Virus record (IMG/VR): IMGVR_UViG_3300031417_000416
Reading direction: 5' to 3' (one strand)
DNA length: 64,000 bases
Source of the DNA: a virus
Shown here: positions 1-64,000 of the stretch, in pieces
How the letters are laid out: the number at the start of each line of letters is the position of its first letter
Position numbering within the stretch: the stretch's first letter is position 1
The notes under the pieces: model-generated
The model's input: the letters and a program-made list of their open reading frames with translations, nothing else
Databases searched by the model: none
What the model was told of the DNA's origin: nothing
Position numbers and translations under genes: made by a program

Positions 1-219
1 CACTTCTTCCGTCCTCAGCTGATCGGCGGCACGACGCGCCTGCCCTTCATGTGGGTGCTCATCGGCATCATCGGAGGCGTGGAGACTATCGGTCTGCTCG
101 GCCTCTTCGTCGGTCCCGCGGTCATGGCCGCCTTCATCCTCGTGTGGCGAGACTTCGTCGAACGTGCACCTGCATCGCCTACGCAGCCCGTCGCACCCGC
201 GACACCCGTCAATCCATAA
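1..219 (+). CDS. AI-2E family (PerM/UPF0118) transporter, C-terminal fragment (5' end outside window)
   Basis: Frame-1 translation (not in ORF track): HFFRPQLIGGTTRLPFMWVLIGIIGGVETIGLLGLFVGPAVMAAFILVW, the typical AI-2E C-terminal motif; TAA at 217-219. Confidence 0.75.
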   Translation, partial: HFFRPQLIGGTTRLPFMWVLIGIIGGVETIGLLGLFVGPAVMAAFILVWRDFVERAPASPTQPVAPATPVNP

Positions 220-231
220 GGATATAGACAC

Positions 232-519
232 ATGGACAACATCGAGCCCACCGAATTGGCCATCCTCGCGCAGACCCTGGAAGACGACGCGACACCGCAG
301 GACATGACGCTGGTCATCAACCTGCGGGTTCTGAACGAGCGGCGTCTTCGCGGAATCGCCGCCGATCGCATGTCGCGCAGCGGCTTCGACATGGATCCGC
401 AGAGGCACGTCGACGGCCCACTGGATGAGCTCGTCTACGAGGCGATGTTCGGCAGCAATCCAGACCCCCTCGGTCCCGACCAGCTCGGCATCGAGATCGT
501 CTCCACGGAAGTCCGGTGA
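232..519 (+). CDS. hypothetical protein
   Basis: AAGGA upstream, GC3-rich codons, GTGA overlap with next ORF. Confidence 0.6.
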   Translation: MDNIEPTELAILAQTLEDDATPQDMTLVINLRVLNERRLRGIAADRMSRSGFDMDPQRHVDGPLDELVYEAMFGSNPDPLGPDQLGIEIVSTEVR

Positions 520-785
520 AGACGCTGCAGATCAAGACCGGGCGGTGGTACGCCGTGCCCGGTCCGGACGGGGCGCCCACCTACTCGCCGGTCGTGCCGG
601 GCATGTCGGCGCGCGACGTCGCCCGCGACATCGATCCGGAAAATCCACCCAAGGTGACGGAGGTCATGGGGACGGGTGTCCGGCTCCATGACGCGGAACG
701 GAAGGACGGCGAGGGCTGGCGGGTCTACGACAACAACGCGCAGGCACTGGCCGCCGCGGCGTTCAGGATCAGGGAGACGGCCTGA
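516..785 (+). CDS. hypothetical protein
   Basis: Translationally coupled on both sides (GTGA, TGATG). Confidence 0.6.
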   Translation: MKTLQIKTGRWYAVPGPDGAPTYSPVVPGMSARDVARDIDPENPPKVTEVMGTGVRLHDAERKDGEGWRVYDNNAQALAAAAFRIRETA

Positions 786-1501
786 TGGCACGGACCGAAC
801 AGTCCTTCGAGTTCCTCGGGGACCTGGTACGCATGGTCCAGGCGGGTGCGCTCGTTCCGGCCGCCTTCCAGCGCCAGTACGTCTGGAGCCGCCACGACAT
901 CGAGGAGATGTGGGCATCCATCGACATGCGCGATCCTCTCGGTGCCGTACTCCTGTGGCGTCCCGACGAAGAGGAGACGGCCCGGAGGCTCGCACGCGAG
1001 CGGCTCGGCCCGGTGACGGTCACGCCCGGCCCACGCACGGGACTGATCCTCGACGGCCAGAACAGGCTGGTGACGCTCGCCTGGTCGATGTTCGACCCCG
1101 ACGACATCGACGGGAATGCTCCGGGCGCGGAGATCTGGAGGAACGGCGACGGTCACGTGCTCGTCGCCGACCCGATCACCGATCCTTCCGCTCCCCGCAT
1201 CGTCTTCATGCCGCGCAGCGACGTGAAGGGCCTGATGATGCCGGTATGGCTGCTCTTCGACAATTCCGCATTCAACCGACACCTCCGCGAGAACTGGGAC
1301 ATCGACGACGCCGAGGAAGCCGGCAAGACCGCGGTCGACTGGCTCTCGCTGCTTCAGGAGGCGTCCCGTCAGGCACGCGTCGTCGTCTCGACCATACAGG
1401 GCGGCGACGCCGACGAGGCCAGACGGCGCTTCCTGCGCATCGCCCGGGTGGGCGTGCCGATGAGCGCATCGGACTTCGACGAGATCGCGACCGGATCGTG
1501 A
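785..1501 (+). CDS. DUF262 (GmrS-N/ParB-like) domain protein, stand-alone
   Basis: Motifs PAAFQRQYVWS, SIDMRDPLGAVLLW and ILDGQNRL. Confidence 0.75.
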   Translation: MARTEQSFEFLGDLVRMVQAGALVPAAFQRQYVWSRHDIEEMWASIDMRDPLGAVLLWRPDEEETARRLARERLGPVTVTPGPRTGLILDGQNRLVTLAWSMFDPDDIDGNAPGAEIWRNGDGHVLVADPITDPSAPRIVFMPRSDVKGLMMPVWLLFDNSAFNRHLRENWDIDDAEEAGKTAVDWLSLLQEASRQARVVVSTIQGGDADEARRRFLRIARVGVPMSASDFDEIATGS

Positions 1502-1950
1502 CCGCGATGCTGATGGCCGTCTCGCTGATGGTCGAGGACTGCGTCGTCGTCGGAGACAGCCTGGCAGCAGGCGTGGGCACGGCCATCAACCGGCAGGTCA
1601 CGGGAACGTCCTGCCGGATAGCCGCACGGCGCGAAGAGCCGGCCTCGCGGATACGCAGGACCATGGAGCCGGTCGTCGCGGACGTCGCGATCGTCTCCGC
1701 CGGCGCGAACGACGCCGCATCGCCAACGCTGGCCCAGGACATACGGATCATCCGATCGATGATCCGCGCGCGACAGGTGATATGGCTTCTACCGAGGAAT
1801 CGTCGAGCGGCCGCAGCTGCGCGCGCCGTCTGCCTGCGGACAGGCGACGTGGCGGTGGACCTGATCGGCTACGTCTCCGACGATGGAATACACCCTCGAG
1901 ACTACCGTCCTGTATCCCGACAGGCGTTCCGGACCACGACATGCGGATGA
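1498..1950 (+). CDS. small SGNH/GDSL-like hydrolase
   Basis: VVVGDSLAAG, SAGAND and DGIHP blocks; GTG start overlapping the DUF262 stop. Confidence 0.7.
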   Translation: MTAMLMAVSLMVEDCVVVGDSLAAGVGTAINRQVTGTSCRIAARREEPASRIRRTMEPVVADVAIVSAGANDAASPTLAQDIRIIRSMIRARQVIWLLPRNRRAAAAARAVCLRTGDVAVDLIGYVSDDGIHPRDYRPVSRQAFRTTTCG

Positions 1951-3240: not shown

Positions 3241-4308
3241 ATGCTAAACTACTGGAAGGCGCCGAACGGCCCTGTCGAGCGGGTGTATCTGCAGATCGCC
3301 CCGAACCGTCGCATCTACGGCCAGCGGGTGACTGGCGACCGCGTCGCATGGCGCGGAGACGGCATGGAGCCCGAGATCGCCGAGCAGACCGCCCGCCGGG
3401 AGATCGGCGATCTCCCGAGCTGGAGCGTGCTGCGCCGCATGGTGGATCCAGGCGTCCGGACCGCTGCCGATACGCCAGAGCAGGACGGTCCCGTCACCGG
3501 GCTGCGTGCCGAGCCCCTGCGACGCGAGCCGCCTGAAGCGCCCGCCCGCGTGCAGCGTCGCGAGGATCGTCGGGCCGCGCGGTCCGCCACGCCGAAGATC
3601 GACACCCCGTACGGAAAAAGGGACAGCGAGAAGCTCGATACCGCGAAGCTCGGTGCGCTTCCGCAGATCACCCGTCTCGTCGTCGATGTGCGCGAGCCAC
3701 GCGAGATCGCCGGCATACTCTCGCGCATCGAAAATCTCGAAGTCGAATATGCTCCGCTGGAACGCGGACGCTACATGGTGGACGGCTGCCTTGTCATCGA
3801 CCGCATATCGACGTTCGACCTGCATAGGGGAATCGTCGACGATCCGAAGCCCCTGCTGAAGCGCGTCTCCGATCTATCGGACGTAGACCACGCGACGCTG
3901 TTCGTCGTGGAGGGAGGCGCGAGGACGCATCGAAGGGCTTCCCTAGAGAGGATCGCCGGCGCGGTGTCGTACGTGTCCGTCGTCCACCGCGTGCCCATCA
4001 TCGAGACCATCGACGTATGGGAGACGGTCTACGTCATCGCGCGCGCCATCGGCCACGCCTGCCATCCCGTAGCTGACGATCTTCCGCAGCCGGGACATCG
4101 ACGCGGTGGACGCAAGGACCACCGCGTCTCGCCGCGATATGTTCTTGAAGGCATTCCCGGCGTATCGACGGTGCGTGCCGAGATGATCCTCGAGCGGTTC
4201 GGCTCGCTCAGGGCGGTCGCCGAAGCTCCGATCGAACAGCTTCTGGACCTGCCTGGCCTCGGACCGACCGTCGCGCAGGCGGTATACGACGCCTTCAACG
4301 GCACCTGA
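3241..4308 (+). CDS. ERCC4/XPF-family domain + (HhH)2 protein, catalytic residues degenerate
   Basis: VVDVRE motif; GRY in place of GDY and IDRIS in place of ERK; C-terminal LEGIPGV...RFGSL...LPGLG HhH pair. Confidence 0.75.
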   Translation: MLNYWKAPNGPVERVYLQIAPNRRIYGQRVTGDRVAWRGDGMEPEIAEQTARREIGDLPSWSVLRRMVDPGVRTAADTPEQDGPVTGLRAEPLRREPPEAPARVQRREDRRAARSATPKIDTPYGKRDSEKLDTAKLGALPQITRLVVDVREPREIAGILSRIENLEVEYAPLERGRYMVDGCLVIDRISTFDLHRGIVDDPKPLLKRVSDLSDVDHATLFVVEGGARTHRRASLERIAGAVSYVSVVHRVPIIETIDVWETVYVIARAIGHACHPVADDLPQPGHRRGGRKDHRVSPRYVLEGIPGVSTVRAEMILERFGSLRAVAEAPIEQLLDLPGLGPTVAQAVYDAFNGT

Positions 4309-4370: not shown

Positions 4371-4447
4371 TGGCGCCCACGGCAGGACTCGAACCTGCGA
4401 CCTACGCTTTCGGAAAGCGGCGCTCTATCCAGCTGAGCTACGTGGGC
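4371..4447 (-). tRNA. tRNA-Arg: tRNA-Arg(CCG)
   Basis: GCCCACG..CGTGGGC acceptor, loop TT-CCG-AA, GGTTCGAGTCC T-arm, encoded CCA. Confidence 0.95.
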
Positions 4448-4493
4448 CCGACGACGGAGCCTGCGAAGACCACATCGACGAAAGGAAAAGAAC

Positions 4494-4856
4494 ATGTCTG
4501 CAGACGCGCAGATCCTGGATCGCATCGACGTCCGCTGGTCCGTCAGGACGAGGAGCGTCGTCGACACGGTATTCGGCAAGGCGGTAGTGAACTGCAGCTT
4601 CAGCATCGTGCTGGGGACCTATGACGGGCCTACCACCCAGAAGACGCTTGCGGACAACATCAACGGCCGCGGCGTATACGAGGACGACATCGACAGCGTC
4701 TCGTGCATCGACGGCGATCCTTCGGTCACCGAGATCGTGCAGATCCTGGCGGCATGCAGCGTACGTCCCGAGGACGTTGTCGAGATGATCATTCAGGACG
4801 TGATCGTCGACGACGGTCACGAGATCGCCTCGAGCATCATGGAACCCCGTCGCTGA
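4494..4856 (+). CDS. hypothetical protein
   Basis: AAAGGAAAAG RBS; acidic 120-aa ORF. Confidence 0.6.
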   Translation: MSADAQILDRIDVRWSVRTRSVVDTVFGKAVVNCSFSIVLGTYDGPTTQKTLADNINGRGVYEDDIDSVSCIDGDPSVTEIVQILAACSVRPEDVVEMIIQDVIVDDGHEIASSIMEPRR

Positions 4857-4887
4857 CCGACGTCGTCACACAAGCGAGGAAAAAGGT

Positions 4888-5424
4888 ATGCAAGACGAAA
4901 GACCGGGCGTCGACCTGGGCAAGCGCGACGGTCCGGTGGATCCCGCCCGCAAGGACGAGTATCTCGGGCCACCGAGGGACGGCAATGTGGCCCTGTCCAG
5001 GAAGCTGATGATCTGCGTGGCCCTGGTGATCGCCGTCATTGTCGCCCTCCTGGTCGTCGGGCGCAGCAGGCAGGCACCGTCACCGCCGCCTGCCGCTCCG
5101 GTGTCGACGCCGGTACGTCGTCAGGCGATCGTGGAGCAGGCGGCACCGGAAGCGGAGCCGGTGGCCGAACCCGTCGAGGAGCCCGTCGATCCTCTGGAGA
5201 CCGCGCGAGAGAAAATCTGCCGCTCGATCGCGAGCGAGTTCGTCGACACGCCGACGCCGACGCAGGAGCAGATGCGACGTACGCTGACCATCTACAACCT
5301 CAACGAGTGCAGCAACCGCTACATCCGCGACAAGGACGCAGAAGGGCGAGGGCTCGACAAGGCCGAGCTCCAAGCCGTCCAGGCGCAGGAGAGCGTCGGC
5401 CCGCTGCGGCTCGAGGACAAGTAG
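4888..5424 (+). CDS. single-pass membrane hypothetical protein
   Basis: Hydrophobic LMICVALVIAVIVALLVVG segment followed by a Pro/Glu linker. Confidence 0.6.
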   Translation: MQDERPGVDLGKRDGPVDPARKDEYLGPPRDGNVALSRKLMICVALVIAVIVALLVVGRSRQAPSPPPAAPVSTPVRRQAIVEQAAPEAEPVAEPVEEPVDPLETAREKICRSIASEFVDTPTPTQEQMRRTLTIYNLNECSNRYIRDKDAEGRGLDKAELQAVQAQESVGPLRLEDK

Positions 5425-5444
5425 GAAGCCGTCGCCGGCCTGAC

Positions 5445-5521
5445 TGGCGCCCTCCACAGGAGTCGAACCTGTGACCTCAGCCTCCGCAAGGCTGCGCTCT
5501 ATCCGGCTGAGCTAGGAGGGC
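5445..5521 (-). tRNA. tRNA-Arg: tRNA-Arg(GCG), rare isoacceptor
   Basis: GCCCTCC..GGAGGGC acceptor, anticodon arm CAGCC-TTGCGGA-GGCTG, A20 in D-loop, encoded CCA. Confidence 0.92.
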
Positions 5522-5551
5522 CGGCGTTCCCGAAGGAACGTCGTATAGGTC

Positions 5552-5628
<77 letters not shown>

Positions 5629-5673
5629 GCAAACTCTGAAAATCGTAGACAACCAAGCAAGAGGAGAATCCCC

Positions 5674-5949
5674 ATGCCTATCGTCCGTGTAACCGTTGCA
5701 GAAGACGTCGAAGTGCCCGAGGGCAGCGTCGTTGTCCTCGCTCCCACCGGGGTCGTCTCGGCGATCCGTCTTCCCGACGGGACCGAGATCAAGCCCTGGA
5801 TCACCTACGAGGCGGACGCCGACACCGATCAGCCGCGCGATCTCTCCTTCGAGGAACTCGCGGCGTTCGGCGTCGATACCGGCCTAGACTACAGCCGTCA
5901 GATCGAAGGCGATCTCGAGGAGATCCAGCCTCAGACACTTGCGGCCTAG
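5674..5949 (+). CDS. hypothetical protein
   Basis: AGGAGA RBS; 91 aa, antisense to the flanking tRNAs. Confidence 0.65.
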   Translation: MPIVRVTVAEDVEVPEGSVVVLAPTGVVSAIRLPDGTEIKPWITYEADADTDQPRDLSFEELAAFGVDTGLDYSRQIEGDLEEIQPQTLAA

Positions 5950-5957
5950 TCGAAGAA

Positions 5958-6045
5958 TGGTGGGTAGGGCTGGATTCGAACCAGCGTAGGGGTTTCCCCC
6001 GCCAGATTTACAGTCTGGTGCCTTTAGCCACTCGGCCACCTACCC
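5958..6045 (-). tRNA. tRNA-Tyr: tRNA-Tyr(GTA)
   Basis: GGGTAGG acceptor, loop CT-GTA-AA, long variable arm, encoded CCA. Confidence 0.95.
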
Positions 6046-6074
6046 ATTGGGAAAGTATCCATACCTGATCCAAC

Positions 6075-6149
6075 TGGCTCCCTGAGTAGGACTCGAACCT
6101 ACGACCCACGCATTAACAGTGCGATGCTCTACCACTGAGCTATCAGGGA
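6075..6149 (-). tRNA. tRNA-Asn: tRNA-Asn(GTT)
   Basis: TCCCTGA..TCAGGGA acceptor, loop CT-GTT-AA, encoded CCA. Confidence 0.95.
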
Positions 6150-6167
6150 ATGTAGTTGGATCAGGAA

Positions 6168-6242
6168 TGGAGCGGGTAAGGGGATTCGAACCCCTGTCCT
6201 CAGCTTGGAAGGCTGCTGCACTAACCCCTGTGCTACACCCGC
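6168..6242 (-). tRNA. tRNA-Gly: tRNA-Gly(TCC)
   Basis: GCGGGTG acceptor, loop CT-TCC-AA, encoded CCA. Confidence 0.95.
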
Positions 6243-6305
6243 GTTCCCAATCATTGTATTCTACAGTATTGTATTACGTCACATAGTCAACTCCTAGTTA
6301 AGTGA

Positions 6306-6380
6306 TGGAGCGGGCGAAGGGATTCGAACCCTCGACCCCAACCTTGGCAAGGTTGTGCTCTACCCCTGAGCTACGCCCGC
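6306..6380 (-). tRNA. tRNA-Gly: tRNA-Gly(GCC)
   Basis: GCGGGCG..CGCCCGC acceptor, loop TT-GCC-AA, encoded CCA. Confidence 0.95.
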
Positions 6381-6458
6381 TTGCTTCAGCACTTGGTCTG
6401 TTCCTTTTTGATTGTTCAACCGCGATCGAATGTCAATCACTTATTTCAGGATGCTGCG

Positions 6459-6725
6459 ATGATCGACGACATCAAGGACGTCACCTCTCATACCGAGGGC
6501 AATATCCTCTACGAAGGCACCGCCCGCTTCCTTGCGGAAGGCGATGAGTATGCATCGCAGGCCTGGCGCTTCCGTGCGAACGACGAGGCCGGCGCCCTTG
6601 AGACGCTGGACCGTCTGTCCGACGGATGCATGTACGCCGATCCCCGCATCGACTACGTCCGGGACTTCGAGGTCGAGGAGCAGGCCGACGTGCTGGACGA
6701 GGACAGCAAACCCGTCGGAGCCTGA
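6459..6725 (+). CDS. hypothetical protein
   Basis: Acidic 88-aa ORF between tRNAs; CAGGA upstream. Confidence 0.55.
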   Translation: MIDDIKDVTSHTEGNILYEGTARFLAEGDEYASQAWRFRANDEAGALETLDRLSDGCMYADPRIDYVRDFEVEEQADVLDEDSKPVGA

Positions 6726-6775
6726 CGCCCCGACGGTTAGTTCGGAATTACACCAACGATGTCAAAGAGCGGATC

Positions 6776-6852
6776 TGGGGCGACCGACGGGGTTCGAACC
6801 CGCGGCATCGGGCACCACAAGCCCGCGCTCTACCGACTGAGCTACAGCCGCC
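6776..6852 (-). tRNA. tRNA-His: tRNA-His(GTG) with encoded G-1:C73
   Basis: G-GCGGCTG..CGGTCGC-C-CCA; arm CGGGC-TTGTGGT-GCCCG. Confidence 0.93.
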
Positions 6853-7451: not shown

Positions 7452-7544
7452 GACCGGTACAACGGACGATGCGGCCGAAAGTGCCACCACGGATGCCCGA
7501 CGTGCTCGGGTGAAGACATGATCAGGAACAGAAAGGAAAAGACC

Positions 7545-8462
7545 ATGGTCCAGATGGGACTGCCGCCCGTGATCTCGCTTACCGGCGTCGGCCAGGTCGG
7601 CAAGAGCGAGGTCGCCAGGTATCTGAAGGAACGCTACGGCTACGGCGGCGACCATATCAACGAGCCGATGGTGGCGATGGCCATTCCGCTGCTCGAGCGG
7701 ATGGGGTGCACGCACGAGGACGCGGTCTCGCGTCTGACCACCGCTCGCAAGGCGGAGGCCATACCCGGCTATGAGTGGCTCACGGGTAGGAAGATCCTCC
7801 AGGCGGTCGGCTACGATCTTCGCAATGCCCTAGGGCGTCTGACGGACGAGTCCGTCGATGCCGTCGACGAGGGGTTCTTCCTCGACATGTGGGAACGACG
7901 TCACGCGCACTTCGAGCGTCTCGTCAACGAGTCGGCCCGATATCCGGTCGAGATCGACTGGACGGAGGACCGCGGCGGCATCGTCATCCTCGTGGACGCC
8001 AAGGACGCGGAGGCCGCGAACGGACATATCTCCGAGACCAAGTCGCTTCCCCATGACTATCTCCTGTTCAACGACTTCGACGGCCTGTCTCGCCTCCACG
8101 CCAAGGTGGATGCGATCCTCATGCAGTGGAGCGCTCCGGACAACAGGCCGGAGGAACTCGCCGAACGTCGCCAGCTCCGTCTCTTCACGGACAACCCGGG
8201 TCTATGCTTCGAGGTCGACGGGCAGGTGCGCTACGGCGAGGAGAACGGACGATCGGCCTTCGAGGCCCTGGAAGGCGCCATGGCCGACACGCTGGTCGCA
8301 CGTGTCCGCCAGCGCTTTCCCGGCAGCGACGCCAAGATCGTCGAGATGGAACGATGGCTGGAAGGACAGCGCAGGATGGAGCGCATGCGGGCAGCGCTCG
8401 TCATCTCGCACTTCGGGGTCGCGGACTTCAATGCACGCTATGCCGCCCTGAAGGCGGCCTGA
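7545..8462 (+). CDS. phage-type deoxynucleoside monophosphate kinase (T4 gp1-like) with C-terminal extension
   Basis: P-loop ISLTGVGQVGKS, GRKILQAVGYDLR, ESARYPVEIDWTEDRGGIVI; AAAGGAAAAG RBS. Confidence 0.7.
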   Translation: MVQMGLPPVISLTGVGQVGKSEVARYLKERYGYGGDHINEPMVAMAIPLLERMGCTHEDAVSRLTTARKAEAIPGYEWLTGRKILQAVGYDLRNALGRLTDESVDAVDEGFFLDMWERRHAHFERLVNESARYPVEIDWTEDRGGIVILVDAKDAEAANGHISETKSLPHDYLLFNDFDGLSRLHAKVDAILMQWSAPDNRPEELAERRQLRLFTDNPGLCFEVDGQVRYGEENGRSAFEALEGAMADTLVARVRQRFPGSDAKIVEMERWLEGQRRMERMRAALVISHFGVADFNARYAALKAA

Positions 8463-53227: not shown

Positions 53228-53231
53228 GGCC

Positions 53232-55536: not shown

Positions 55537-55687
55537 CGCGGGCCCGAGAGGGCCCCGTACGCTGACCAATCCCCGCCGGACGGACACGAACGTCCCTACG
55601 GCGCAGGATCCGCCGACGTCGATGCCTCCGTACGAGAGGTCCATGGCGTCTGCGGTCGATCGCTCAAACCAGGACAAGGAAAAGAAT

Positions 55688-56272
55688 ATGGGAGTATCCC
55701 TCAAGAAGGGCGACCGCGTGTCGCTGAGCAAGAACGTCGAATCCGGCCTCACGAGCGTCAAGCTCGGCCTGGGCTGGGACGAGCGCAAGAAGGGCGGCCT
55801 CGGCGGCCTCTTCGGCGGTGGCGGCGGCGGGATCGATCTCGACGCGTCGGCGGTGCTGTTCGGCAGCGATGGCTCGAAGGTCGACCAGGTGTGGTTCCGC
55901 CAGCTCAAGAGCCGTGACGGCAGCGTCGTGCACAGCGGCGACAACCTGACCGGCGCCGGCGACGGTGACGACGAGGTCATCACCGTCGACCTGACGCGCG
56001 TGCCGTCGCAGGTCGAGACCATCGTGTTCGTGGTCTCGAGCTTCCGCGGCGACACGTTCGACTCGATCGCCAACGCCTTCGCGCGTGCGGTCGATGCCAG
56101 GACCGGCACCGAGATCGCCCGCTATGACATCACCGGCGGCGGCAGCCACACCGGTCTGATCATGGCGTCGCTGTCCCGCAAGTCGGGCAGCTGGGAAGTG
56201 CTGGCGATCGGCGAGCCGGGCCGTTCGAAGACCTTCGACGACCTGCTGCCGCAGATGCGCGCGCACATCTGA
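55688..56272 (+). CDS. terZ: TerD-family protein (TerZ-like)
   Basis: VSLKKG..SL, LGLGWD, DLDAS, HSGDNLTGAGDGDDE, RYDI. Confidence 0.85.
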   Translation: MGVSLKKGDRVSLSKNVESGLTSVKLGLGWDERKKGGLGGLFGGGGGGIDLDASAVLFGSDGSKVDQVWFRQLKSRDGSVVHSGDNLTGAGDGDDEVITVDLTRVPSQVETIVFVVSSFRGDTFDSIANAFARAVDARTGTEIARYDITGGGSHTGLIMASLSRKSGSWEVLAIGEPGRSKTFDDLLPQMRAHI

Positions 56273-56279
56273 TCCCGAG

Positions 56280-56312
56280 GCCGTCCGGACGGGCATTCCC
56301 CGTCCGGGCGGC
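56280..56312. other. 14-bp intergenic hairpin without U-tract
   Basis: GCCGTCCGGACGGG-CATTC-CCCGTCCGGGCGGC. Confidence 0.6.
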
Positions 56313-56361
56313 ACGGATCATCTGAAGGACCGGACATTCGCAACCGGAACGGGAGAACGCG

Positions 56362-56742
56362 ATGACCAAGAACGAGCGAGGCCTGCGTCTTCACGACGGC
56401 CTCACATGCATGGGCTGGATCGCAGGAGGCGAGGCCCACTCGCTGGCGTACTGGACGATGCGACTCGCCGACGAGATCGAGGAGGTCGGGCGCTACGCCG
56501 TGGCGTATCGGAACCTGCGCGAGCTCGCGTGGGAGAACGTGCGCCCCTTCACGAGCAGCCAGAACGCCGTATCGGCAAGATATGCCTACGACATCCAGCA
56601 GTTCCTGAGTCGACACGAGGGGCGATTCTCGTCCAAGTATCGTCAGACGCTGGACGAGATCCGCAGGGCCCTGCGGTCGATCGGCACGGTCCCGGCCATC
56701 ACCGGCCGGATCGACGACGACCGCCAGTCGCTCGCGGCCTGA
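56362..56742 (+). CDS. hypothetical protein within the ter cluster
   Basis: GGGAGA RBS. Confidence 0.55.
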   Translation: MTKNERGLRLHDGLTCMGWIAGGEAHSLAYWTMRLADEIEEVGRYAVAYRNLRELAWENVRPFTSSQNAVSARYAYDIQQFLSRHEGRFSSKYRQTLDEIRRALRSIGTVPAITGRIDDDRQSLAA

Positions 56743-56751
56743 GGAGACGAA

Positions 56752-57960
56752 ATGACAATCAAGCTCACCATAGGGGAAAAGAAGCCCCTCTCCGCAATCG
56801 GGGTGGGACAGCGGCTGACCGTGATCGTCGATCATGGCGCAGCCGACCTCGACATCGCAGTCTTCTCGCTGGACGCGTCCCAGCGCATATCGGACGACCG
56901 CTACACCGCACTGTTCAGCCAGCCGGAGACGCCGGGCGGCGAGATCCGCATGACGAGGCCTGTAACGGGAAGCACGCAGTTCGAGATCGACCTGGCGCGT
57001 CTTCCCTCGACGGTCGAGCGCATGGTGCTCACCGCGACGCACGACAGTCTCCCGGTCGCGCAGACCGTTCCGCTGGTGGTGACGCTCGGGGACGCGACCT
57101 TCGACGTCGGGCCCTACCTCAAGCAGGAGAAGGCGGTAAAGCTCGTCGAGATCTACCGCTACAAGGGAGAGTGGCGTCTCGGCGCGGTCGCGCAGGGCTT
57201 CAGCGGCGGCCTGGCCGATCTGGTACGGCACTTCGGTGGCGATGTCGACGGAGACGGCGGGCAGACGACGACGCAGACGCGCGCCGTCGCCACGCCACCA
57301 GCTCCACCAGCTCCTCCGCCTCCGCCTCCTCCACCTCCACCTCCACCGCCACCGCCTCCGCCTCCGCCACCTGCGCCGGACATGAAGAAGGTCAGTCTGC
57401 GCAAGAACGAGAGCGTGAGCCTGGCGAAGCGGGGCGGCAGCTTCGGCGAGGCGATCCTCAACCTCAACTGGACGCAGCCGCGCGGCATGTTCGCCAAGGC
57501 GATCGATCTCGATCTTGGATGTCTGTTCGAGCTCGAGGACGGCCGCTGCGGCGTCGTCCAGGCGCTGGGTCATTCGTTTGGCAACTACCATTCGGAGCCG
57601 TATCTGGAGCTATCCGGGGACGACCGAACCGGCGCCATCTCGGCGGGCGAGACCATCAGGATCAACGGCAGCCAGTTCCAGCGCATCCGCCGACTGGCCG
57701 TGTTCGGCCTGATCTACGACGGCGCGCCCAACTGGAACGCGACCGACGGCGTCATCACGATCAAGATGCCCGACCAGCCCGAGATCGAGGTTCGCCTGAC
57801 AGGCGGCGACAACGCCAAGCGGCTGTGCGGCGTGGCGCTGATCGAGAACGTGCGGGGCGAGATGAAGATCACCAGTCTCGTCAGCTATCACCGTGACCAG
57901 GAGGACTACGCGAACAGCCAGGGCTTCCGCATGCGCTGGCAGTCCGCGACCAAGGACTGA
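56752..57960 (+). CDS. terA: TerA-like protein (degenerate TerD domain, poly-Pro linker, TerA C-domain)
   Basis: YRYKGEWRLGAVAQGFSGGL; about 20 Pro; NLNW..DLDLGC..VQALG..LSGDDRTG..GE. Confidence 0.75.
   Translation: MTIKLTIGEKKPLSAIGVGQRLTVIVDHGAADLDIAVFSLDASQRISDDRYTALFSQPETPGGEIRMTRPVTGSTQFEIDLARLPSTVERMVLTATHDSLPVAQTVPLVVTLGDATFDVGPYLKQEKAVKLVEIYRYKGEWRLGAVAQGFSGGLADLVRHFGGDVDGDGGQTTTQTRAVATPPAPPAPPPPPPPPPPPPPPPPPPPPAPDMKKVSLRKNESVSLAKRGGSFGEAILNLNWTQPRGMFAKAIDLDLGCLFELEDGRCGVVQALGHSFGNYHSEPYLELSGDDRTGAISAGETIRINGSQFQRIRRLAVFGLIYDGAPNWNATDGVITIKMPDQPEIEVRLTGGDNAKRLCGVALIENVRGEMKITSLVSYHRDQEDYANSQGFRMRWQSATKD
57313..57372 (+). repeat. CCN run encoding about 20 consecutive prolines
   Basis: Direct codon reading (mixed CCT/CCG/CCA). 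Confidence 0.9.
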
Positions 57961-58048
57961 CCCGAACCACCTTCAATGAATCGTTACCGGTCTACAGGAA
58001 GAAATCAGAAGGCCGGGACGAGATCGTCTCTCTTCCAAGGAAACCAAT

Positions 58049-59149
58049 ATGCTCAGAAACTTCATGGGCTCCATCGTATTCACGGTGGTGGCCCTCCTGC
58101 TCGCAGGCGTGCTGGGATACGTCGAGACGGGGGTCGCGCTCGCCGGCCTCCAGATGATGTTCCTCGCCGCCATTCTCGGCGTCATGGAGACGTCGCTCAG
58201 CCTCGACAACGCCGTTGTCAACGCGGCCATCCTCAAGGACATGGATCCCAAGTGGCAGCGCCGCTTCCTGACCTGGGGCATCCTCATCGCCGTCTTCGGC
58301 ATGCGAATCCTGTTTCCGCTGATCATCGTATCGGTCTCCGCCTGGGTGAACCCGATCGAGGCCGGCCGAATCGCGCTGTTCGATCATGAGCGCTACGAGC
58401 AGATCGTGACCGGCGCCCACGTCGGCATCTCCGGCTTCGGTGGTGCATTCCTGATGCTGGTCGGTCTGACGTTCTTCCTCGACGAGGATCGCGAGCATCA
58501 CTGGATCCCGTTCATCGAGAAGCCCCTCTCGATGCTCGCCCGGATCCCATATGCGCCGTACATCGTCAGCGCGATCGTCATCGGGCTCGTGTCGCTGATG
58601 GCGCCTGCCGAGGAAGCCAAGACGTTCCTCTACGCAGGCGGTGCAGGCATCGCGACCTACTTCGCAGTGCAGAAGTTCGGCGACTGGATGGGCGGCGAAG
58701 CCGATGCCACCGGCAAGATCGTACGCAGCGGCGCAGGGGCGTTCGTCTATCTCGAATTCCTCGACGCGTCGTTCTCGTTCGACGGCGTGATCGGCGCGTT
58801 CGCGATCACCAACGACATCGTGCTCATCGCACTCGGTCTCGGCATCGGCGCCATGTTCGTGCGTTCGATGACGATCGCCCTGGTCCGCGGCGGGCATCTG
58901 TCCGAGTACCGCTTCCTCGAGCCAGGTGCGTTCTACGCCATCATGGCGCTGGCGACGATCATGCTGCTCAGCATCCGCGTCGAGACCCCGGAGGTCATCA
59001 CTGGCCTGATCGGTGCCGCGTTCATCGGCGCTGCACTCTGGTACTCGATCCGTCACAAGCGCCTGAATCCGGACGACTACGCCGAGGACGGCGAGGCCGA
59101 CGCGATCATGCCTGACGGCAACGTCGTTCCCGGCGTCCACACGCGCTGA
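58049..59149 (+). CDS. terC: TerC-family (DUF475-type) integral membrane protein
   Basis: [54 protein letters not shown]. Confidence 0.9.
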
Positions 59150-59156
59150 TAGAGAT

Positions 59157-59188
59157 ACGTCCGGTCCTGCGGCGGGAGGGCCGGACGT
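59157..59188. other. 12-bp intergenic hairpin without U-tract
   Basis: ACGTCCGGTCCT..AGGGCCGGACGT. Confidence 0.55.
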
Positions 59189-59221
59189 CACGGTTCCCGT
59201 CTTCAACACCAAGGAGTAAAC

Positions 59222-59842
59222 ATGGGTATTTCACTTTCCAAGGGCGGCAACGTCAGCCTGAGCAAGGAAGAGCCTGGCCTCAACGAGATCACCATCGGCC
59301 TGGGCTGGGACGCCCGCGCCACCGATGGCGGCGACTTCGATCTCGACGCATCGCTATTCGCGCTCGGCGCGTCCGGCAAGGTCCGCGCCTCGGCGAATTC
59401 CGCCAACGGCCTGACCGACGACATCGCGGACTTCTGCTTCTACGGCAACCTGAAGATCCTGAACGACGCGGTCGTACACAAGGGCGACAACCGCACCGGC
59501 GCGGGCGAGGGCGACGACGAGTCGATCGACGTCACGCTGAACGCGGTGCCGCAGGACGTGCAGAAGCTCGCCGTCGTGATCACCATCGCCAAGGCCCGCG
59601 AGCTCGGCCTGAACTTCGGCATGGTCACCAACGCGTTCGCGCGCATCGTCAACACCAAGACCGGCCGCGAGATCGCGCGCTACGACCTCTCCGAGGACGC
59701 GGCGACCGAGACGGCCATCATCATCGGCGAGGTCTATCGCCATGGTGCCGAGTGGAAGTTCAAGGCCGTCAGCCAGGGCTTCGCCGGCGGCCTCTACAAG
59801 GTCTGCCACTTGTTCGGCATCAACGCCGACGACAACGGCTGA
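59222..59842 (+). CDS. terD: TerD-family protein
   Basis: [58 protein letters not shown]. Confidence 0.9.
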
Positions 59843-59849
59843 TAACGCA

Positions 59850-59877
59850 GGCCATCCTGCACTCCAGCAGGATGGCC
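59850..59877. other. 11-bp intergenic hairpin without U-tract
   Basis: GGCCATCCTGC-ACTCCA-GCAGGATGGCC. Confidence 0.6.
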
Positions 59878-59952
59878 GCGTCTACCGTCCGGGAAGTATC
59901 CGGACGTCACGTGCGTACCAATCGCTCCGCAACACGAAAGAAGGAATTTCAC

Positions 59953-60537
59953 ATGGCAGTTTCACTCAAGAAGGGCGGCAACGTCTCGCTGACCAAGAGC
60001 GACCCGAGCCTCACCTCGCTGATCATCGGCCTCGGCTGGAATCCGCGCAAGACCGACGGCGAGAAGTTCGATCTCGACGCCTCGGCATTCATGCTGGGTG
60101 ACAGCGGCAAGGTCGCCTCCGATGCCGACTTCATCTTCTACGGCAAGAAGACCTCGGACGACGGCTCGGTCGTCTATGGCGGCGACAACCGCACCGGCGA
60201 GGGCGACGGCGACGACGAGAAGATCACCATCGATCTGGCCAAGGTGCCCGCCAACGTCAAGAAGATCGCGATCACCGTCACGATCGACGAATGGGAAGCG
60301 CGCAAGCAGAACTTCGGCATGGTCGACGGCGCGTATGCACGCTGCGTCAACGGCACCTCGAACGTCGAAGTCGCGCGCTTCGACCTGTCGGAGGACTCGG
60401 CCGGCGAGACCGCGATGATCTTCGTCGAGATCTACCGCGGCAGCGAAGCCGAAGAGTGGAAGTTCAAGGCGATCGGGCAGGGCTACGAGGGCGGTCTCGC
60501 CCGTCTGGCAACCGACTACGGCGTCAACCTGGGCTGA
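59953..60537 (+). CDS. terE: TerD-family protein (TerE-like)
   Basis: [45 protein letters not shown]. Confidence 0.88.
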
Positions 60538-60592
60538 TGTTTCCCCATAAGATGGCGGTCTAGTCTTTGACTTCTCCGTCATCTACTGGCGT

Positions 60593-60623
60593 ATGCCGTT
60601 GCGCTTGTATGGCGCAACGGCAT
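60593..60623. other. perfect 12-bp inverted repeat (terminator or operator)
   Basis: ATGCCGTTGCGC-N7-GCGCAACGGCAT. Confidence 0.6.
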
Positions 60624-60654
60624 TTCGCTGTCAAATGACTTATTGCCGCGGAAC

Positions 60655-61980
60655 ATGATCATGCAGACGATGAAGCCGGGCGAGAAACGCCCCATCTCGG
60701 ACGTGACGACCGATCGCAGGATCCAGGTCGCCGTCACCCATTCTCCCGCGGACATCGACATCGCCGCCTTCGGTCTGAACGACCGGAAGATGATCGGCGA
60801 CGACCGCTACGTCGTACTGTTCAGCAACGAGCGCAGCCCCGAAGGCGCGATCGCCTTCGCGAAGGGCAGCGGCTCGACCGTCATCACGGTCGATCTCGAC
60901 CGTCTTCCCGCGGACATCCACCGCGTATCCATCACGGCGACGCATGACGACATGCCGCTGCGACAGGCGACCGCGCTCAGCGCAGACGTCGCCGGCGCGG
61001 TCACAATCGACGCCAAGCCCATGCTGGGAGACGAGAAGGCGGTCATGCTGCTCGACCTCTACCGCCACGGCGGCGACTGGCGGCTCGGATCGATCGTACA
61101 GGGCTTCAACGGCGGTCTCGCCGCCCTCGTAGAGCACTTCGGCGGCGACGTCGCAGGCGACGAGGAGGCCGCGGCACCCTCGCCGACACCCGCGCCTGCT
61201 GTTGCTGCTCCGGCGGCGCCGCCCCCGGAAGCTCCCCTGCCGACCGGCAAGGTGGATCTGCGCAAGCACAAGGTCGGCGTGTCGCTGAAGAAGCTCGGCA
61301 TCGAGAACGAGAAGGCCGACGTCACCTTCGTCATGGACGGCAGTGGCTCCATGGCCGGCCTATATGCGAACGGCACCGTGCAGGAGACCATCGAGCGCGG
61401 CGCTCCAGTGGCGCTACGTATCGATCCGGACGGCAGCATGGACACCTGGTACTATGCCAGCTCGTGCAAGCAGGTGGCCTCGCTGACCGCCGACAATCTC
61501 GAGGGCTTCGTCGCCCGTACGCTCCCGTCGCCCGGCGAGCGCATCGGCGGTATCGAGACGGGCAAGAAGGGCTTCTTCGGCGGCATGGCCAAGACCGGTG
61601 GAGAGTCCATCGGCTTCGGCAACAACGAGCCCGTCGTAATGAACGCGATCCTGGCCACCGAACCCGCCAGGCGTACGGTTCCCCGGCTCGTGATCTTCGT
61701 CACCGACGGCGGCATCGACGGCGGCACGTCGGCGGTCATCAAGGACATCCTGCGCAAGAGCTCGCGGCAGGCCATCTTCTGGCAGTTCGTCGGCGTCGGC
61801 AACGCGAACTACGGGGTCCTGCGCGAGCTGGACACCGTCGAGGGGCGCGTGGTCGACAACGCCGGCTTCTTCAGCATCGACGATCTTTCGGCCATCAGCG
61901 ACGACGATCTCTACGACCGCGTGCTCTCGGAATTCCCGGCATGGCTCCGGGCGGCGCGCGCGGCCGGAATCATCGGATAG
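60655..61980 (+). CDS. TerD-like domain + vWA domain protein (TerF-like)
   Basis: YRHGGDWRL..QGFNGGL; MIDAS DGSGS; VIFVTDGG, FWQFVGVG, VVDNAGFF. Confidence 0.85.
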   Translation: MIMQTMKPGEKRPISDVTTDRRIQVAVTHSPADIDIAAFGLNDRKMIGDDRYVVLFSNERSPEGAIAFAKGSGSTVITVDLDRLPADIHRVSITATHDDMPLRQATALSADVAGAVTIDAKPMLGDEKAVMLLDLYRHGGDWRLGSIVQGFNGGLAALVEHFGGDVAGDEEAAAPSPTPAPAVAAPAAPPPEAPLPTGKVDLRKHKVGVSLKKLGIENEKADVTFVMDGSGSMAGLYANGTVQETIERGAPVALRIDPDGSMDTWYYASSCKQVASLTADNLEGFVARTLPSPGERIGGIETGKKGFFGGMAKTGGESIGFGNNEPVVMNAILATEPARRTVPRLVIFVTDGGIDGGTSAVIKDILRKSSRQAIFWQFVGVGNANYGVLRELDTVEGRVVDNAGFFSIDDLSAISDDDLYDRVLSEFPAWLRAARAAGIIG

Positions 61981-61986
61981 GGGAGA

Positions 61987-62277
61987 ATGCCCGTGACAGA
62001 GGAAAACGAGAGCGTCGAGACGCAGGTCGAGCCGGCAGCGGAGGCAAAGAGCCCGGGGATCTACCAGATCGTCGAGGCCGGCGTGCTCGGCGTGGGCTTC
62101 GCCGTCATCTACGCCTTCGGCATCCTGCGCTTCTCGCAGATGGTGGCCATGGCATGGGGACCGCTGCCCGCGATCGGGATGGCCCTGTTCGGCGTGGTCA
62201 TCGCGATCGGCTTCATCGACGCGGTAAGCGCACTCATCAACGACACACGCAAGACGAAGGACGACGAGAAGGCATGA
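61987..62277 (+). CDS. small two-TM membrane protein
   Basis: GGGAGA RBS; two hydrophobic helices; ATGA coupling. Confidence 0.6.
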   Translation: MPVTEENESVETQVEPAAEAKSPGIYQIVEAGVLGVGFAVIYAFGILRFSQMVAMAWGPLPAIGMALFGVVIAIGFIDAVSALINDTRKTKDDEKA

Positions 62278-63290
62278 GGATCTGGTTCAATCAAGGCCAT
62301 ACCCTGTTCCAGACGCTACGAGGGATGGAGGAGCGCGTACCGGGAGTGACCATGCTGGTCAGCGCGAAGAACGCGATGTCGCCCTCGGCGATGGCCGGCA
62401 GCGAGACGTGGGTCGAGCCAGCCGATCTCGAGGGCGCCGACTATGCGCGCTGGGCCCTGGATCGCGCCATCGAGGCTCGCGTCGACGTCTTCTTCCCGCA
62501 GAAGGAGGTCCTGGCCATCGCCGACGCGGCCGACGACTTCCGCAGGGCCGGCATCCGCCTCGAGCTGCCGGGGTCGGCGGCGACGATCCGCCTGCTGGAC
62601 GACAAGGCCGCGATGTCCGAGGACCTTGCCGGAGATCCGATCCTAGCTCCCACGATCCGTGCCCGAAGCGCAGCCGAGGTCGACGAGGCCGTCCGGACGA
62701 TCCGCGCAGCGGGCGTCGACGCATGCGTGAAGCCTGCACACGGCGTGTTCGCCCGGGGCTACTGGCATCTGGTCGAGGACGACCTCCTCGAATGCCTCGA
62801 CGACGTCGGCAGCCGACGGATGCCGCTGGCGACGTATGTGCAGGCGGTCGAGCAGGCGGAACGACGCGGCGTACCCGTCGACCTCATCGTCATGGAGCAT
62901 CTCCCCGGTACCGAGGCCTCGGTAGACGTGCATGCACGCGACGGCGAGCTCCTGCGCGCGGTGACGCGGGTCAAGATCAAGTCGTCACGTCAGCTGATCG
63001 TCGGCGGACACGAGCTCGTGGAGACGGCCGCGAGGCTGGTGTCGCGCTATCGCCTCAACGGGGTGGTCAACGTCCAGTTCAAGCCGACGGCTTCCGGCGA
63101 GTGGCGAATCCTGGAGATCAACCCCCGAATGGCCGGCGGGCTCTCCTACGCCATGCCGGTGGGCATGGATCTGGCCGCGGACTGGGTACGTGCCGCGACC
63201 GGCCAGTGCATCCATCCAGTTCAGGATGCGTTCGAGCGGGTAATCAACTTCCACACAGAGGCCACCCTGCGCGGGAACACTACCCCCTAG
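62274..63290 (+). CDS. ATP-grasp enzyme of the Ter-associated type
   Basis: MRIWFNQG, DVFFPQ, LDDKA, CVKP..G..ARGY, MEHLPG.E.SVD, NVQFK, LEINPRMAGG. Confidence 0.8.
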   Translation: MRIWFNQGHTLFQTLRGMEERVPGVTMLVSAKNAMSPSAMAGSETWVEPADLEGADYARWALDRAIEARVDVFFPQKEVLAIADAADDFRRAGIRLELPGSAATIRLLDDKAAMSEDLAGDPILAPTIRARSAAEVDEAVRTIRAAGVDACVKPAHGVFARGYWHLVEDDLLECLDDVGSRRMPLATYVQAVEQAERRGVPVDLIVMEHLPGTEASVDVHARDGELLRAVTRVKIKSSRQLIVGGHELVETAARLVSRYRLNGVVNVQFKPTASGEWRILEINPRMAGGLSYAMPVGMDLAADWVRAATGQCIHPVQDAFERVINFHTEATLRGNTTP

Positions 63291-63332
63291 TGGGGATTCC
63301 CCAGCTGCCGAGAGCGAGTTAAGGATGAGAAC

Positions 63333-63881
63333 GTGAACGATATTTCGTGGCCTGTCTGGACACTGGAGATGACGCCTTCGAGCGCCACCTCCGACAGCTA
63401 CCCCATCGAGGTGGGCGTGGCCTGCTGGACGTCGCCCACGGCATCGGTCACGACCTGGTCGACTCCGATAGGCTCTGGGGGGCAGGAAGACTGGGGCGAG
63501 CCGCATCCGCTGCTGCTCGAAAGAGTGGGCATCACGCATGCCCAGCTCGCCTCAGCACCCCCCGCGGAGGAGGTCGCTCGCCAGCTGAACGACATCTTCA
63601 TGGCCGCGACGGTCTACGGACGAGGCGGCACGGTGGACGTGCATCTCGCCAACCGGCTCAATCTCGCCGCACGCGTATGGCCGAGCTACAGTCTGCGCAC
63701 GTGGCGCGACATCTGCGAGCGCCACCAGGACCGCGCGAGCGGTGCCTGGGACATCGTCCGGGCATCGGACGGCGACGCGGCAAAGAAGGCCTGCGGCACG
63801 ATGATGGGCATCGCGCACGTGCTGGGATGCAGGCCGGCATGCCGTAGCGTCCCGACGATGGCAGTCTCGCTGCCGATCTGA
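63333..63881 (+). CDS. DnaQ/DEDD-like exonuclease-fold protein, degenerate
   Basis: SYPIEVGVA..W...VGIT...L..A.PAEEVARQLN pattern, but ExoI reads TLEMT (first Asp lost) and ExoIII is not recognisable. Confidence 0.5.
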   Translation: MNDISWPVWTLEMTPSSATSDSYPIEVGVACWTSPTASVTTWSTPIGSGGQEDWGEPHPLLLERVGITHAQLASAPPAEEVARQLNDIFMAATVYGRGGTVDVHLANRLNLAARVWPSYSLRTWRDICERHQDRASGAWDIVRASDGDAAKKACGTMMGIAHVLGCRPACRSVPTMAVSLPI

Positions 63882-63918
63882 CATCGACATGGGGCATCGC
63901 CCCAGAAGGAACCATAAC

Positions 63919-64000
63919 ATGATCGAGAAGGCTGGAAGCCGCGTCGAGCTGTCGACGTGGCCCACGACGCTCGTCCTGAGCGCATCCGCCGGAGAAGGCC
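63919..64000 (+). CDS. hypothetical protein, 5' fragment
   Basis: GAAGGA RBS then ATG 63919; open to window end. Confidence 0.4.
   Translation, partial: MIEKAGSRVELSTWPTTLVLSASAGEG

Follow-up and report, generated by a model that had tools for sequence, protein, structure and literature searches.

The DNA considered here, a 64,000-nucleotide stretch of the IMG/VR virus record IMGVR_UViG_3300031417_000416 (hereafter the window, meaning the whole stretch), raises the question of what kind of replicon brings conjugation genes together with a gene repertoire typical of jumbo phages. The initial annotation described a conjugative-type alphaproteobacterial element with a phage-like autonomy kit, and this description is supported by the 581-kb replicon of the nearest relative and by three complete circular plasmids. 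Our analyses indicate that the window very likely comes from the interior of a giant conjugative megaplasmid, of whose backbone it forms a part; the plasmid would belong to a Sphingomonas-like alphaproteobacterium and is probably 0.35 to 0.6 Mb in size. The best explanation for the observations is a family of replicons of 0.35 to 0.8 Mb, in which a VirB/D4-type type IV secretion system (T4SS), a long MobA/MobL relaxase, and a divergent VirD4 are joined to a conserved DNA-handling block composed of UvrD, topoisomerase III, an exonuclease with Rad52, a CHC2 primase-like protein, a giant lineage-specific protein, ribonucleotide reductase (RNR), a second UvrD, a VirB6-like protein, RecD2, and an SLT lytic transglycosylase.

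A protein-guided scan of one genome per species, with a 1375-aa protein of the window as the query, returned a single relative, located on contig C1 of Sphingomonas sp. 3-13AW (NZ_JASNVZ010000001.1; 581,572 bp). This contig is a true sequence relative, collinear with the entire window at 177.3 to 237.3 kb with 70 to 77% nucleotide identity, and 52 of the 63 window genes are common to it at 55 to 90% amino acid identity (tblastn). The differences comprise a GmrSD_N gene without a tblastn match in C1, a second ERCC4 paralogue, an HNH gene without a tblastn match in the 3-13AW genome, a few small open reading frames (ORFs), and the tRNA cluster. The initial annotation had named rep/par, relaxase, and VirB4 genes as the ones to look for beyond the window, and on C1, whose parts were located by tblastn with proteins of the Erythrobacter aureus plasmid described below, RepA_C/ParAB, MobA/MobL, and VirB4, VirB5, VirB8, VirB9, VirB10, and VirB11 are all present (Table 1). 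The relaxase is 1177 aa long (PF03389, 1.8e-17), and VirB4 shares 33% identity with the annotated VirB4 of E. aureus across 843 aa. Pfam searches of C1 returned MobA_MobL, RepA_C, sigma-70 regions 2 and 4, T2SSE (VirB11), TrbI (VirB10), CagX (VirB9), VirB8, and the T4SS (VirB5) family. The setting in 3-13AW thus corresponds to neither of the two contexts that the initial annotation had regarded as contrary to its description (an ordinary chromosome, or phage morphogenesis genes in the absence of a T4SS core); it is one replicon of 581 kb with a strong one-strand bias (88% of 567 called genes). Its GC content is 61.3%; among six further contigs sampled, five are at 66 to 68% and one is at 62.3%. 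The rplB gene lies on contig C6 and is absent from C1.

We also considered that the element might comprise only 50 to 340 kb of C1, given a shift in GC and skew at ∼340 kb; this was rejected because orthologues of E. aureus plasmid genes (RepA/ParAB, RNA ligase, macro-domain, and S8 proteins) also occur at 380 to 522 kb and because a promoter-like motif (see below) and the strand bias span the whole contig. In addition, C1 carries a second, unrelated T4SS near RepA/ParAB (500 to 507 kb; strong VirB4, VirB10, and VirB11 matches) and a truncated second VirD4-like ORF of 542 aa (282.2 to 283.9 kb), features that a smaller plasmid may have left behind after co-integration.

Among complete circular plasmids, VirD4 has three clear relatives, namely, the 408-kb plasmid of Erythrobacter aureus YH-07 (NZ_CP031358.1; 48% identity to the window VirD4), the 347-kb p1 of Sphingosinicella sp. 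BN140058 (NZ_CP035502.1; 47%), and the 731-kb pMVF16-3 of Microvirga sp. VF16 (NZ_CP069357.1; 37%). Their annotated gene order is MobA/MobL, (DnaB-like), VirB2/3/4 to VirB8/B9/B10/B11, VirD4, (UvrD), an opposite-strand hypothetical gene, topoisomerase III, Rad52, CHC2 zinc finger, a hypothetical protein of 1100 to 1400 aa, SSB, RNR, UvrD, VirB6-like, RecD-like, and SLT, which is the backbone of the window from VirD4 through the giant ORF to SLT plus MobA/MobL and VirB2 to VirB11. VirD4 directly follows VirB11 in the three plasmids, whereas BRCT, RNase HII, and ERCC4 genes precede it in the window and in 3-13AW. For two of the three, MOB-suite gave a non-mobilizable classification in spite of a complete complement of transfer genes, and no description of these plasmids was found in the literature searched; the family has apparently been sequenced yet left undescribed, in line with the poorly described class proposed at the outset.

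The annotation of the E. aureus plasmid, covering base 10,001 to the end (407,975 bp), includes RepA with ParA/ParB at 298 to 302 kb; dnaE, dnaQ, dnaN, recA, radA, recJ, ligA, clpX, HU, and a sigma factor; thyA, DHFR, tmk, MazG, and ∼10 DNA methyltransferases; and >180 kb of small co-oriented hypothetical genes that start beside mobA. At 1 to 25 kb and 378 to 408 kb, the plasmid also carries a seemingly complete flagellar gene set, a type IV pilus-like cluster, and Wadjet, which are unusual plasmid cargo. Beside mobA, the median gene size is ∼130 aa both on C1 (340 to 400 kb) and on the E. aureus plasmid (119 to 300 kb), with transcription toward mobA. This run of small genes looks like a giant leading region, although any such region, like the position of the origin of transfer (oriT) and the direction of transfer, is putative in these replicons.

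A sample of 401 species genomes from the order contained the VirD4 clade only once, in 3-13AW itself. In a collection of 5.8 billion proteins, 279 VirD4 clusters were recovered at an E value of ≤1e-50, many of them on contigs of 400 to 820 kb and with source names including Sphingorhabdus, Croceicoccus, Microvirga, and Camelimonas. JGI metagenome contigs 96.5 to 98% identical to the window exist as well. Moreover, metagenome contigs whose VirD4 is 66 to 69% identical retain the window-type neighborhood (deoxynucleoside monophosphate [dNMP] kinase, ERCC4, RNase HII, BRCT, VirD4, UvrD, topoisomerase III, exonuclease, Rad52, and CHC2), indicating that a subfamily with VirD4 split from the T4SS core exists. 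This neighborhood, with a VirD4 of 69% identity, was also seen on the 1,270,031-bp metagenome contig Ga0308163_10000002, which could be a larger member, an integrated copy, or a misassembly.

Several observations weigh against a conjugative megaplasmid. None of the genes for a relaxase, VirB4, VirB8 to VirB11, a pilin, Rep, or Par lies within the window itself; what kind of replicon it belongs to and which transfer genes accompany it are presumed by extrapolation from a relative at ∼77% nucleotide identity, and its VirB6-like call (TrbL) falls under the Pfam threshold. A distance of ∼93 kb, as measured in 3-13AW, separates VirD4 from the T4SS core in the window-type subfamily, unlike in the three plasmids. 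RepA_C was found on C1 and the E. aureus plasmid but not on the Sphingosinicella and Microvirga plasmids; the replication module therefore varies across the family. The ends of C1 share 127 bp, which suggests a circle, but the overlap is ambiguous because an identical 127-mer is also internal to C1. Finally, no transfer experiment for any family member was found in the literature searched.

The absence of Rep and Par genes from the window is also what would be seen if it belonged to an integrative and conjugative element or a large genomic island in the chromosome of the source organism, with no free plasmid; a tyrosine recombinase on the E. aureus plasmid fits this reading, and so does the 1.27-Mb metagenome contig with its window-type VirD4 locus, if that contig is a chromosome plus insert. 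We nevertheless consider such an integrated origin improbable, as the collinear region of the nearest relative lies on a replicon that has RepA_C/ParAB, lacks rplB, and is 5 to 6 GC points below most sampled host contigs, three relatives were deposited as complete circular plasmids, and no integrase or tRNA-flanked junction occurs within the 64 kb. Like these relatives, the window's own copy is presumably extrachromosomal.

Just as improbable, if not slightly more so, is the reading as a chromid or secondary chromosome, passed on vertically, no longer mobile, and with T4SS genes that are relics. The GC content of C1, clearly under that of its host, is not chromid-like; the core gene sought, rplB, was found elsewhere (C6); the 340- to 360-kb region of C1 showed no conservation among 30 related genomes; and the patchiness of the VirD4 clade (one genome in 401) is typical of a mobile element. 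The very large size, the DNA polymerase III (Pol III) subunits, RecA, and tRNAs of the relatives, the flagellar genes of E. aureus, and the non-mobilizable typing of two relatives would suit a chromid, but no internal stop interrupts the ORFs of the T4SS, the relaxase, and VirD4, which have their full length. The conjugative megaplasmid remains the preferred reading, and the window's own element would, judging from its relatives, be transferred by conjugation.

For the phage reading, common Pfam models were used for capsid and terminase. On C1 and the three complete plasmids, neither the HK97-type capsid model PF05065, the only capsid model applied, nor Terminase_6N, TerL_ATPase, and Phage_portal (PF03237, PF03354, and PF04860) found a match, while PF05065 recovered prophage capsids on 3-13AW contigs C4, C9, and C28 and the capsid, terminase, and portal searches together detected prophages on C2, C4, C9, and C28. 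Megablast of window positions 1 to 25000 against 50,697 phage and 72,556 plasmid records returned tRNA matches only, and scans of IMG/VR found no relatives of VirD4 and only a zinc-finger match for the CHC2 protein. A jumbo phage or phage-plasmid with its structural genes outside the window, which the tRNA cluster, the RNR with its HNH insertion, the T4-type dNMP kinase, Rad52 plus exonuclease, the Ter genes (also present in Caulobacter jumbo phages; PMC7824862), the numerous small unnamed ORFs, and the strong one-strand orientation would favor, is therefore the least credible explanation and can hardly be maintained against these searches and an E. aureus annotation without a virion protein.

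The window has a GC content of 65% without a compositional break. Genes were called with a codon model trained on the longest ORFs with high GC at third codon positions, because spurious frames dominate unfiltered ORF lists when GC is this high; ∼63 genes were obtained, 56 of them on the plus strand, and the proteins (∼60 ORFs) were scanned with Pfam, PHROGs, NCBIfam, and PADLOC (Table 1). No capsid, terminase, portal, tail, or transposase family was matched by Pfam or PHROGs, bearing out the earlier statement that virion genes and transposases are lacking. The features that the initial annotation had picked out (VirD4, a VirB6-like protein, SLT, topoisomerase III, a Rad52/YqaJ pair, RNR with a homing endonuclease, a T4-like dNMP kinase, an orphan C5 methyltransferase, and many short hypothetical ORFs) were all recovered, the VirB6-like protein with a weak score. 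Absent from that annotation but brought out by the scans are two ERCC4 plus HhH nucleases, RNases HII and HI, a BRCT protein, three UvrD-type helicases, RecD2, NDK, DsbB, a hybrid histidine kinase, and the Ter cluster. Repeats were limited to coding tandem repeats and the paralogous Ter and UvrD genes.

Table 1. Features of the window and modules located on contig C1 of Sphingomonas sp. 3-13AW
Replicon	Feature	Position	Strand	Match or remark
Window	GmrSD_N/DUF262 (ParB-like nuclease N-domain)	785..1501	+	PF03235 4.3e-13; PADLOC PDC-M55C 4.6e-13
Window	ERCC4-like + (HhH)2 protein, divergent paralogue	3241..4308	+	HHH_5 8.9e-9; ERCC4 0.0024
Window	Eight tRNA genes, one 2.5-kb cluster amid small plus-strand ORFs	4371..6851	-	ARAGORN; Rfam RF00005 63-71 bits
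Window	T4-type dNMP kinase	7518..8462	+	phrog_139 3.9e-23
Window	Weak ART-PolyVal-like ORF, overlapping the ERCC4 gene from its 5' side	9144..9869		ART-PolyVal 0.0017, under cut-off
Window	XPF/Mus81-type ERCC4 nuclease, C-terminal (HhH)2	9854..11641	+	ERCC4 3.3e-10; HHH_5 3.2e-12
Window	RNase HII	11736..12329	+	PF01351 6.7e-38
Window	BRCT-domain protein directly 5' of virD4	12987..13589	+	PTCB-BRCT 7.7e-5
Window	CATCCTAWAA motif, 41 nt 5' of virD4	13624..13633	+	One of 12 intergenic window copies
Window	Further CATCCTAWAA copies	2798(-), 3144(-), 6444(-), 11662, 25165(-), 30281, 40431(-), 48433, 50485, 52537, 52798		
Window	VirD4-type type IV coupling protein	13665..15770	+	PF02534 1.5e-44; TraG-D_C 2.4e-19; TrwB_AAD_bind
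Window	UvrD/Rep-type SF1 helicase, first of three	15821..17884	+	PF00580 3.4e-62
Window	Conserved hypothetical protein, family-wide positional orthologue	17994..19274	-	26% to gene at E. aureus WP_115418085 position
Window	DNA topoisomerase III	19499..21703	+	PF01131 9.1e-87; TIGR01056 1.5e-125
Window	RecE/YqaJ-like exonuclease	21787..22647	+	phrog_434 7.1e-8
Window	Rad52/Rad22-type annealase, with 15-nt coding tandem repeat	22703..24088	+	PF04098 3.1e-16
Window	CHC2 zinc-finger primase-like protein	24117..25142	+	PF01807 1.9e-5; dnaG domain 4.4e-5
Window	1375-aa lineage-restricted protein, faint DprA-like segment	25263..29390	+	PF02481 0.004
Window	Class I RNR alpha	31052..33004	+	PF02867 7.9e-115
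Window	Free-standing HNH homing-type endonuclease between RNR alpha and beta	33053..33682	+	HNH_3 2.4e-6
Window	Class I RNR beta	33679..34728	+	PF00268 2e-75
Window	UvrD-type helicase, second	35509..37629	+	PF00580 1.4e-72
Window	Three-gene operon, last gene a VirB6/TrbL-like membrane protein (38271-39605)	38271..40415	-	TrbL 0.0013
Window	RecD2 SF1B helicase	40537..43116	+	TIGR01448 1.4e-191, above cut-off; Pfam
Window	SLT lytic transglycosylase (VirB1-like role)	43172..43954	+	PF01464 2.2e-11
Window	C5 cytosine DNA methyltransferase	46284..47852	+	PF00145 8.6e-31; PADLOC MTase_II
Window	Hybrid PAS histidine kinase/receiver	48448..50457	+	
Window	DsbB	50502..51011	+	
Window	Nucleoside diphosphate kinase (NDK)	51036..51422	+	
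Window	RNase HI	53010..53723	+	PF00075 2.1e-32
Window	UvrD-like helicase, third	53792..55285	+	PF00580 2.1e-18
Window	Ter stress/defense cluster, ∼8 kb	55622..63290	+	PF02342, PF04332, PF10138, PF15632
3-13AW C1	ThyA, DHFR	50-52 kb		
3-13AW C1	DnaN	56-57 kb		
3-13AW C1	DnaE, DnaQ	135-139 kb		
3-13AW C1	LigA	247-249 kb		
3-13AW C1	RecA	258-259 kb		
3-13AW C1	ClpX	308-309 kb		
3-13AW C1	JetC (Wadjet subunit) homologue	310-314 kb		
3-13AW C1	VirB5-like, VirB8, VirB9, VirB10, VirB11	319-327.5 kb		
3-13AW C1	VirB4	327.6-330.0 kb		
3-13AW C1	DnaB-like	331-333 kb		
3-13AW C1	MobA	336.9-340.4 kb		
3-13AW C1	RepA, ParA, ParB	517-522 kb		

The window VirD4 has an intact Walker A motif and no intein and is 90% identical to its counterpart on C1. 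Its scores fall far under every NCBIfam equivalog cut-off for VirD4, TraG, and TraD, indicating a divergent coupling-protein lineage. Inteins are found among its relatives: about 25 of the best 120 are ∼1050 aa long with intein/LAGLIDADG domains, and in one of them (P0021), the intein sits exactly within Walker A (PPGTGK, intein, TA). The position of the BRCT gene before virD4 is kept across the subfamily, according to synteny on four metagenome contigs. The VirB6-like protein has a positional orthologue with a T4SS annotation on the E. aureus plasmid, where the three genes of the operon have the same layout.

In the DNA-handling block, CHC2 protein orthologues occur on all three complete plasmids, and a giant ORF occupies the position of the 1375-aa protein throughout the family. 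The latter protein has seven homologues only, one of them with PF02481; it had no PDB match, no usable Atlas neighbor, and no PHROG or phage match, and its plasmid match is limited to 119 residues. The minus-strand conserved hypothetical protein was likewise unmatched by Pfam, PHROGs, and PADLOC. Two ERCC4 (XPF/Mus81-type) plus (HhH)2 proteins are present on this one bacterial element, the ERCC4 score of the first being marginal; the second, at 9854 to 11641, is conserved in the subfamily, including the metagenome relatives. No partner nuclease was recognized near the C5 methyltransferase, whose neighbors are unnamed by Pfam, PHROGs, and PADLOC.

With respect to jumbo-phage-type traits, the window has its own nucleotide and DNA metabolism together with tRNAs (RNR, dNMP kinase, NDK, eight tRNAs, HNH, and Rad52 plus exonuclease). 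The RNR alpha and beta subunits are 79% identical to those of Sphingosinicella p1, compared with 47% for VirD4, so that RNR is either far more constrained or has been exchanged separately. The tRNA genes (Arg-CCG, Arg-GCG, Arg-ACG, Tyr-GTA, Asn-GTT, Gly-TCC, Gly-GCC, and His-GTG) had been described as interspersed; their presence stands, but they form one cluster amid small ORFs rather than being scattered across the window. This cluster is not conserved, the syntenic site on C1 (232152 to 232225) holding a single tRNA-Asp, and the tRNA load differs among members (8 in the window, 19 on C1, and 3 on the E. aureus plasmid). The tRNA-Gly(GCC) of the window is 100% identical to a copy on 3-13AW contig C13 and to copies on Sphingomonas and Azospirillum plasmids, while the remaining tRNAs are ∼80 to 88% identical to copies on other contigs of 3-13AW. 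The Ter cluster, composed of four stand-alone TerD-domain proteins (three of ∼200 aa and one of 402 aa), TerC/DUF475, a TerF-like TerD plus vWA protein, and a Ter-linked ATP-grasp protein, is collinear with C1 at 177.9 to 186.1 kb; no such cluster was encountered on the E. aureus plasmid or within the stretches of ∼42 kb taken for comparison from the Sphingosinicella and Microvirga plasmids.

A promoter-like motif, CATCCTAWAA, is matched 12 times in the window (≤1 mismatch), always in intergenic positions, against 0.76 expected, and this number was reached in none of 100 shuffles. An extended form, TTGcc-N12-yCATCCTAWAAc, recurs across the element. On C1, 45 exact 9-mers were counted versus ∼3.5 expected (calculated by hand from base composition); 37 of these are intergenic, and 31 lie <200 nt 5' of a co-oriented gene. 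The motif is kept at the orthologous C1 sites 5' of virD4, rnhB, and the gene at 30347. Sigma-70-type proteins are encoded in the family on C1 (155061 to 156683) and on the E. aureus plasmid (377214 to 378260). As a family-wide signal the motif was rejected: the E. aureus plasmid has 15 and 0 CATCCTA copies per strand versus ∼17 expected (by hand), so the motif appears specific to the window/3-13AW subfamily. One copy (6444 to 6453, minus strand) faces the minus-strand tRNA cluster 64 nt 5' of tRNA-Gly(GCC) and may thus serve as the promoter of the array.

As a concept, a conjugative megaplasmid that combines tRNAs with DNA/deoxynucleoside triphosphate (dNTP) genes is not new, having been published for pMPPla107 (PMC6482414). 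This plasmid and pBASL58 of Pseudomonas are self-transmissible megaplasmids of ∼0.9 to 1 Mb with 44 to 54 tRNAs, a GC content below that of the host, and mostly hypothetical genes, their shared genes being biased to DNA synthesis, repair, and dNTP production and including Pol III subunits, helicases, primase, and ligases (PMC6482414). The pMPPla107 family, likened here by its published description, has the same overall design as that of the window and is its closest published analogue, with gammaproteobacterial rather than alphaproteobacterial hosts. The traits of this kind of plasmid (>350 kb, tRNAs, low GC, and DNA/dNTP genes) are all found on C1, and the tRNA and DNA/dNTP content is found in the window. 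The T4SS of pMPPla107 is Dot/Icm-like, not VirB type. The window's family differs from it in the VirB-type T4SS, the MobA/MobL relaxase, and an extreme gene co-orientation, to which the window/3-13AW subfamily adds an element-wide promoter motif; close relatives of the window VirD4 or giant protein outside Alphaproteobacteria, Pseudomonas included, were not found among PLSDB plasmids, in which the inclusion of pMPPla107 was unchecked.

Genes for tRNAs, RNR, and nucleotide kinases occur in jumbo phages, as do essential genes that harbor homing endonucleases and inteins, ART-type modifiers, and numerous small orphan ORFs; those of Caulobacter have TerD/TerC/TerF (PMC7824862). All of these kinds of genes are common to the window's family, which differs from jumbo phages in having a T4SS, a relaxase, and plasmid Rep/Par, while capsid, terminase, and portal were not found. 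In addition, leading regions of conjugative plasmids contain orphan methyltransferases, SSB, annealase, ART-like proteins, and small co-oriented genes beside transfer genes, as here (PMC11541004), although such genes extend over >60 to 180 kb in the window's family versus a few kilobases in F- or IncP-type plasmids.

Tentatively, and with more doubt than confidence, these replicons can be regarded as one coherent, widespread, undescribed alphaproteobacterial lineage of "conjugative mega-elements" of 0.35 to 0.8 Mb (perhaps >1 Mb) with virus-grade autonomy, that is, with their own Pol III core, a sigma factor and element-wide promoter (the extended motif above), variable tRNA arrays, dNTP synthesis, inteins and homing endonucleases in essential transfer and replication genes, ∼90% of genes co-oriented, and a leading region of >60 kb. 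They would then be the T4SS-borne counterpart of jumbo phages, missed by standard plasmid typing.

As to how such an element might work, each module can be given a putative role. The MobA/MobL relaxase would nick oriT, and VirD4 would feed the single strand into the VirB-type T4SS. In the recipient, the annealase/exonuclease, topoisomerase, helicases, RNases H, primase-like protein, and XPF-like nucleases may convert, repair, and decatenate a very long incoming strand, and the giant protein with its faint DprA-like segment probably belongs to this DNA-handling and repair block. The orphan methyltransferase could pre-protect the DNA against restriction; together with the weak ART-like ORF, it would fit by analogy the anti-restriction and establishment roles described for plasmid leading regions (PMC11541004). 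RNR, dNMP kinase, and NDK may supply dNTPs for a replicon that would add >10% to the DNA of the cell, and the relatives also encode ThyA, DHFR, Tmk, and their own Pol III alpha, epsilon, and beta subunits. The tRNA cluster might offset translational load, as proposed for megaplasmids (PMC8628078 and PMC6482414), or counter tRNA-targeting defenses, as proposed for the tRNA arrays of mycobacterial plasmids (PMC12803027). Ter, a known stress and superinfection-defense module that is also found in Caulobacter jumbo phages (PMC7824862), would be stress or superinfection-defense cargo.

Very large conjugative plasmids shift hundreds of genes at once, and few families of them, e.g., pMPPla107, have been characterized. 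The window is linked here to a family that is common in environmental data and spans Sphingomonadales and Hyphomicrobiales. This family raises the questions of how a half-megabase single strand is transferred and established, why a plasmid needs its own replisome, sigma factor, and tRNAs, what causes the near-complete co-orientation of its genes, and where the boundary between plasmid and jumbo-phage gene repertoires lies. The cultured strains Erythrobacter aureus YH-07 and Sphingomonas sp. 3-13AW put these questions within experimental reach.

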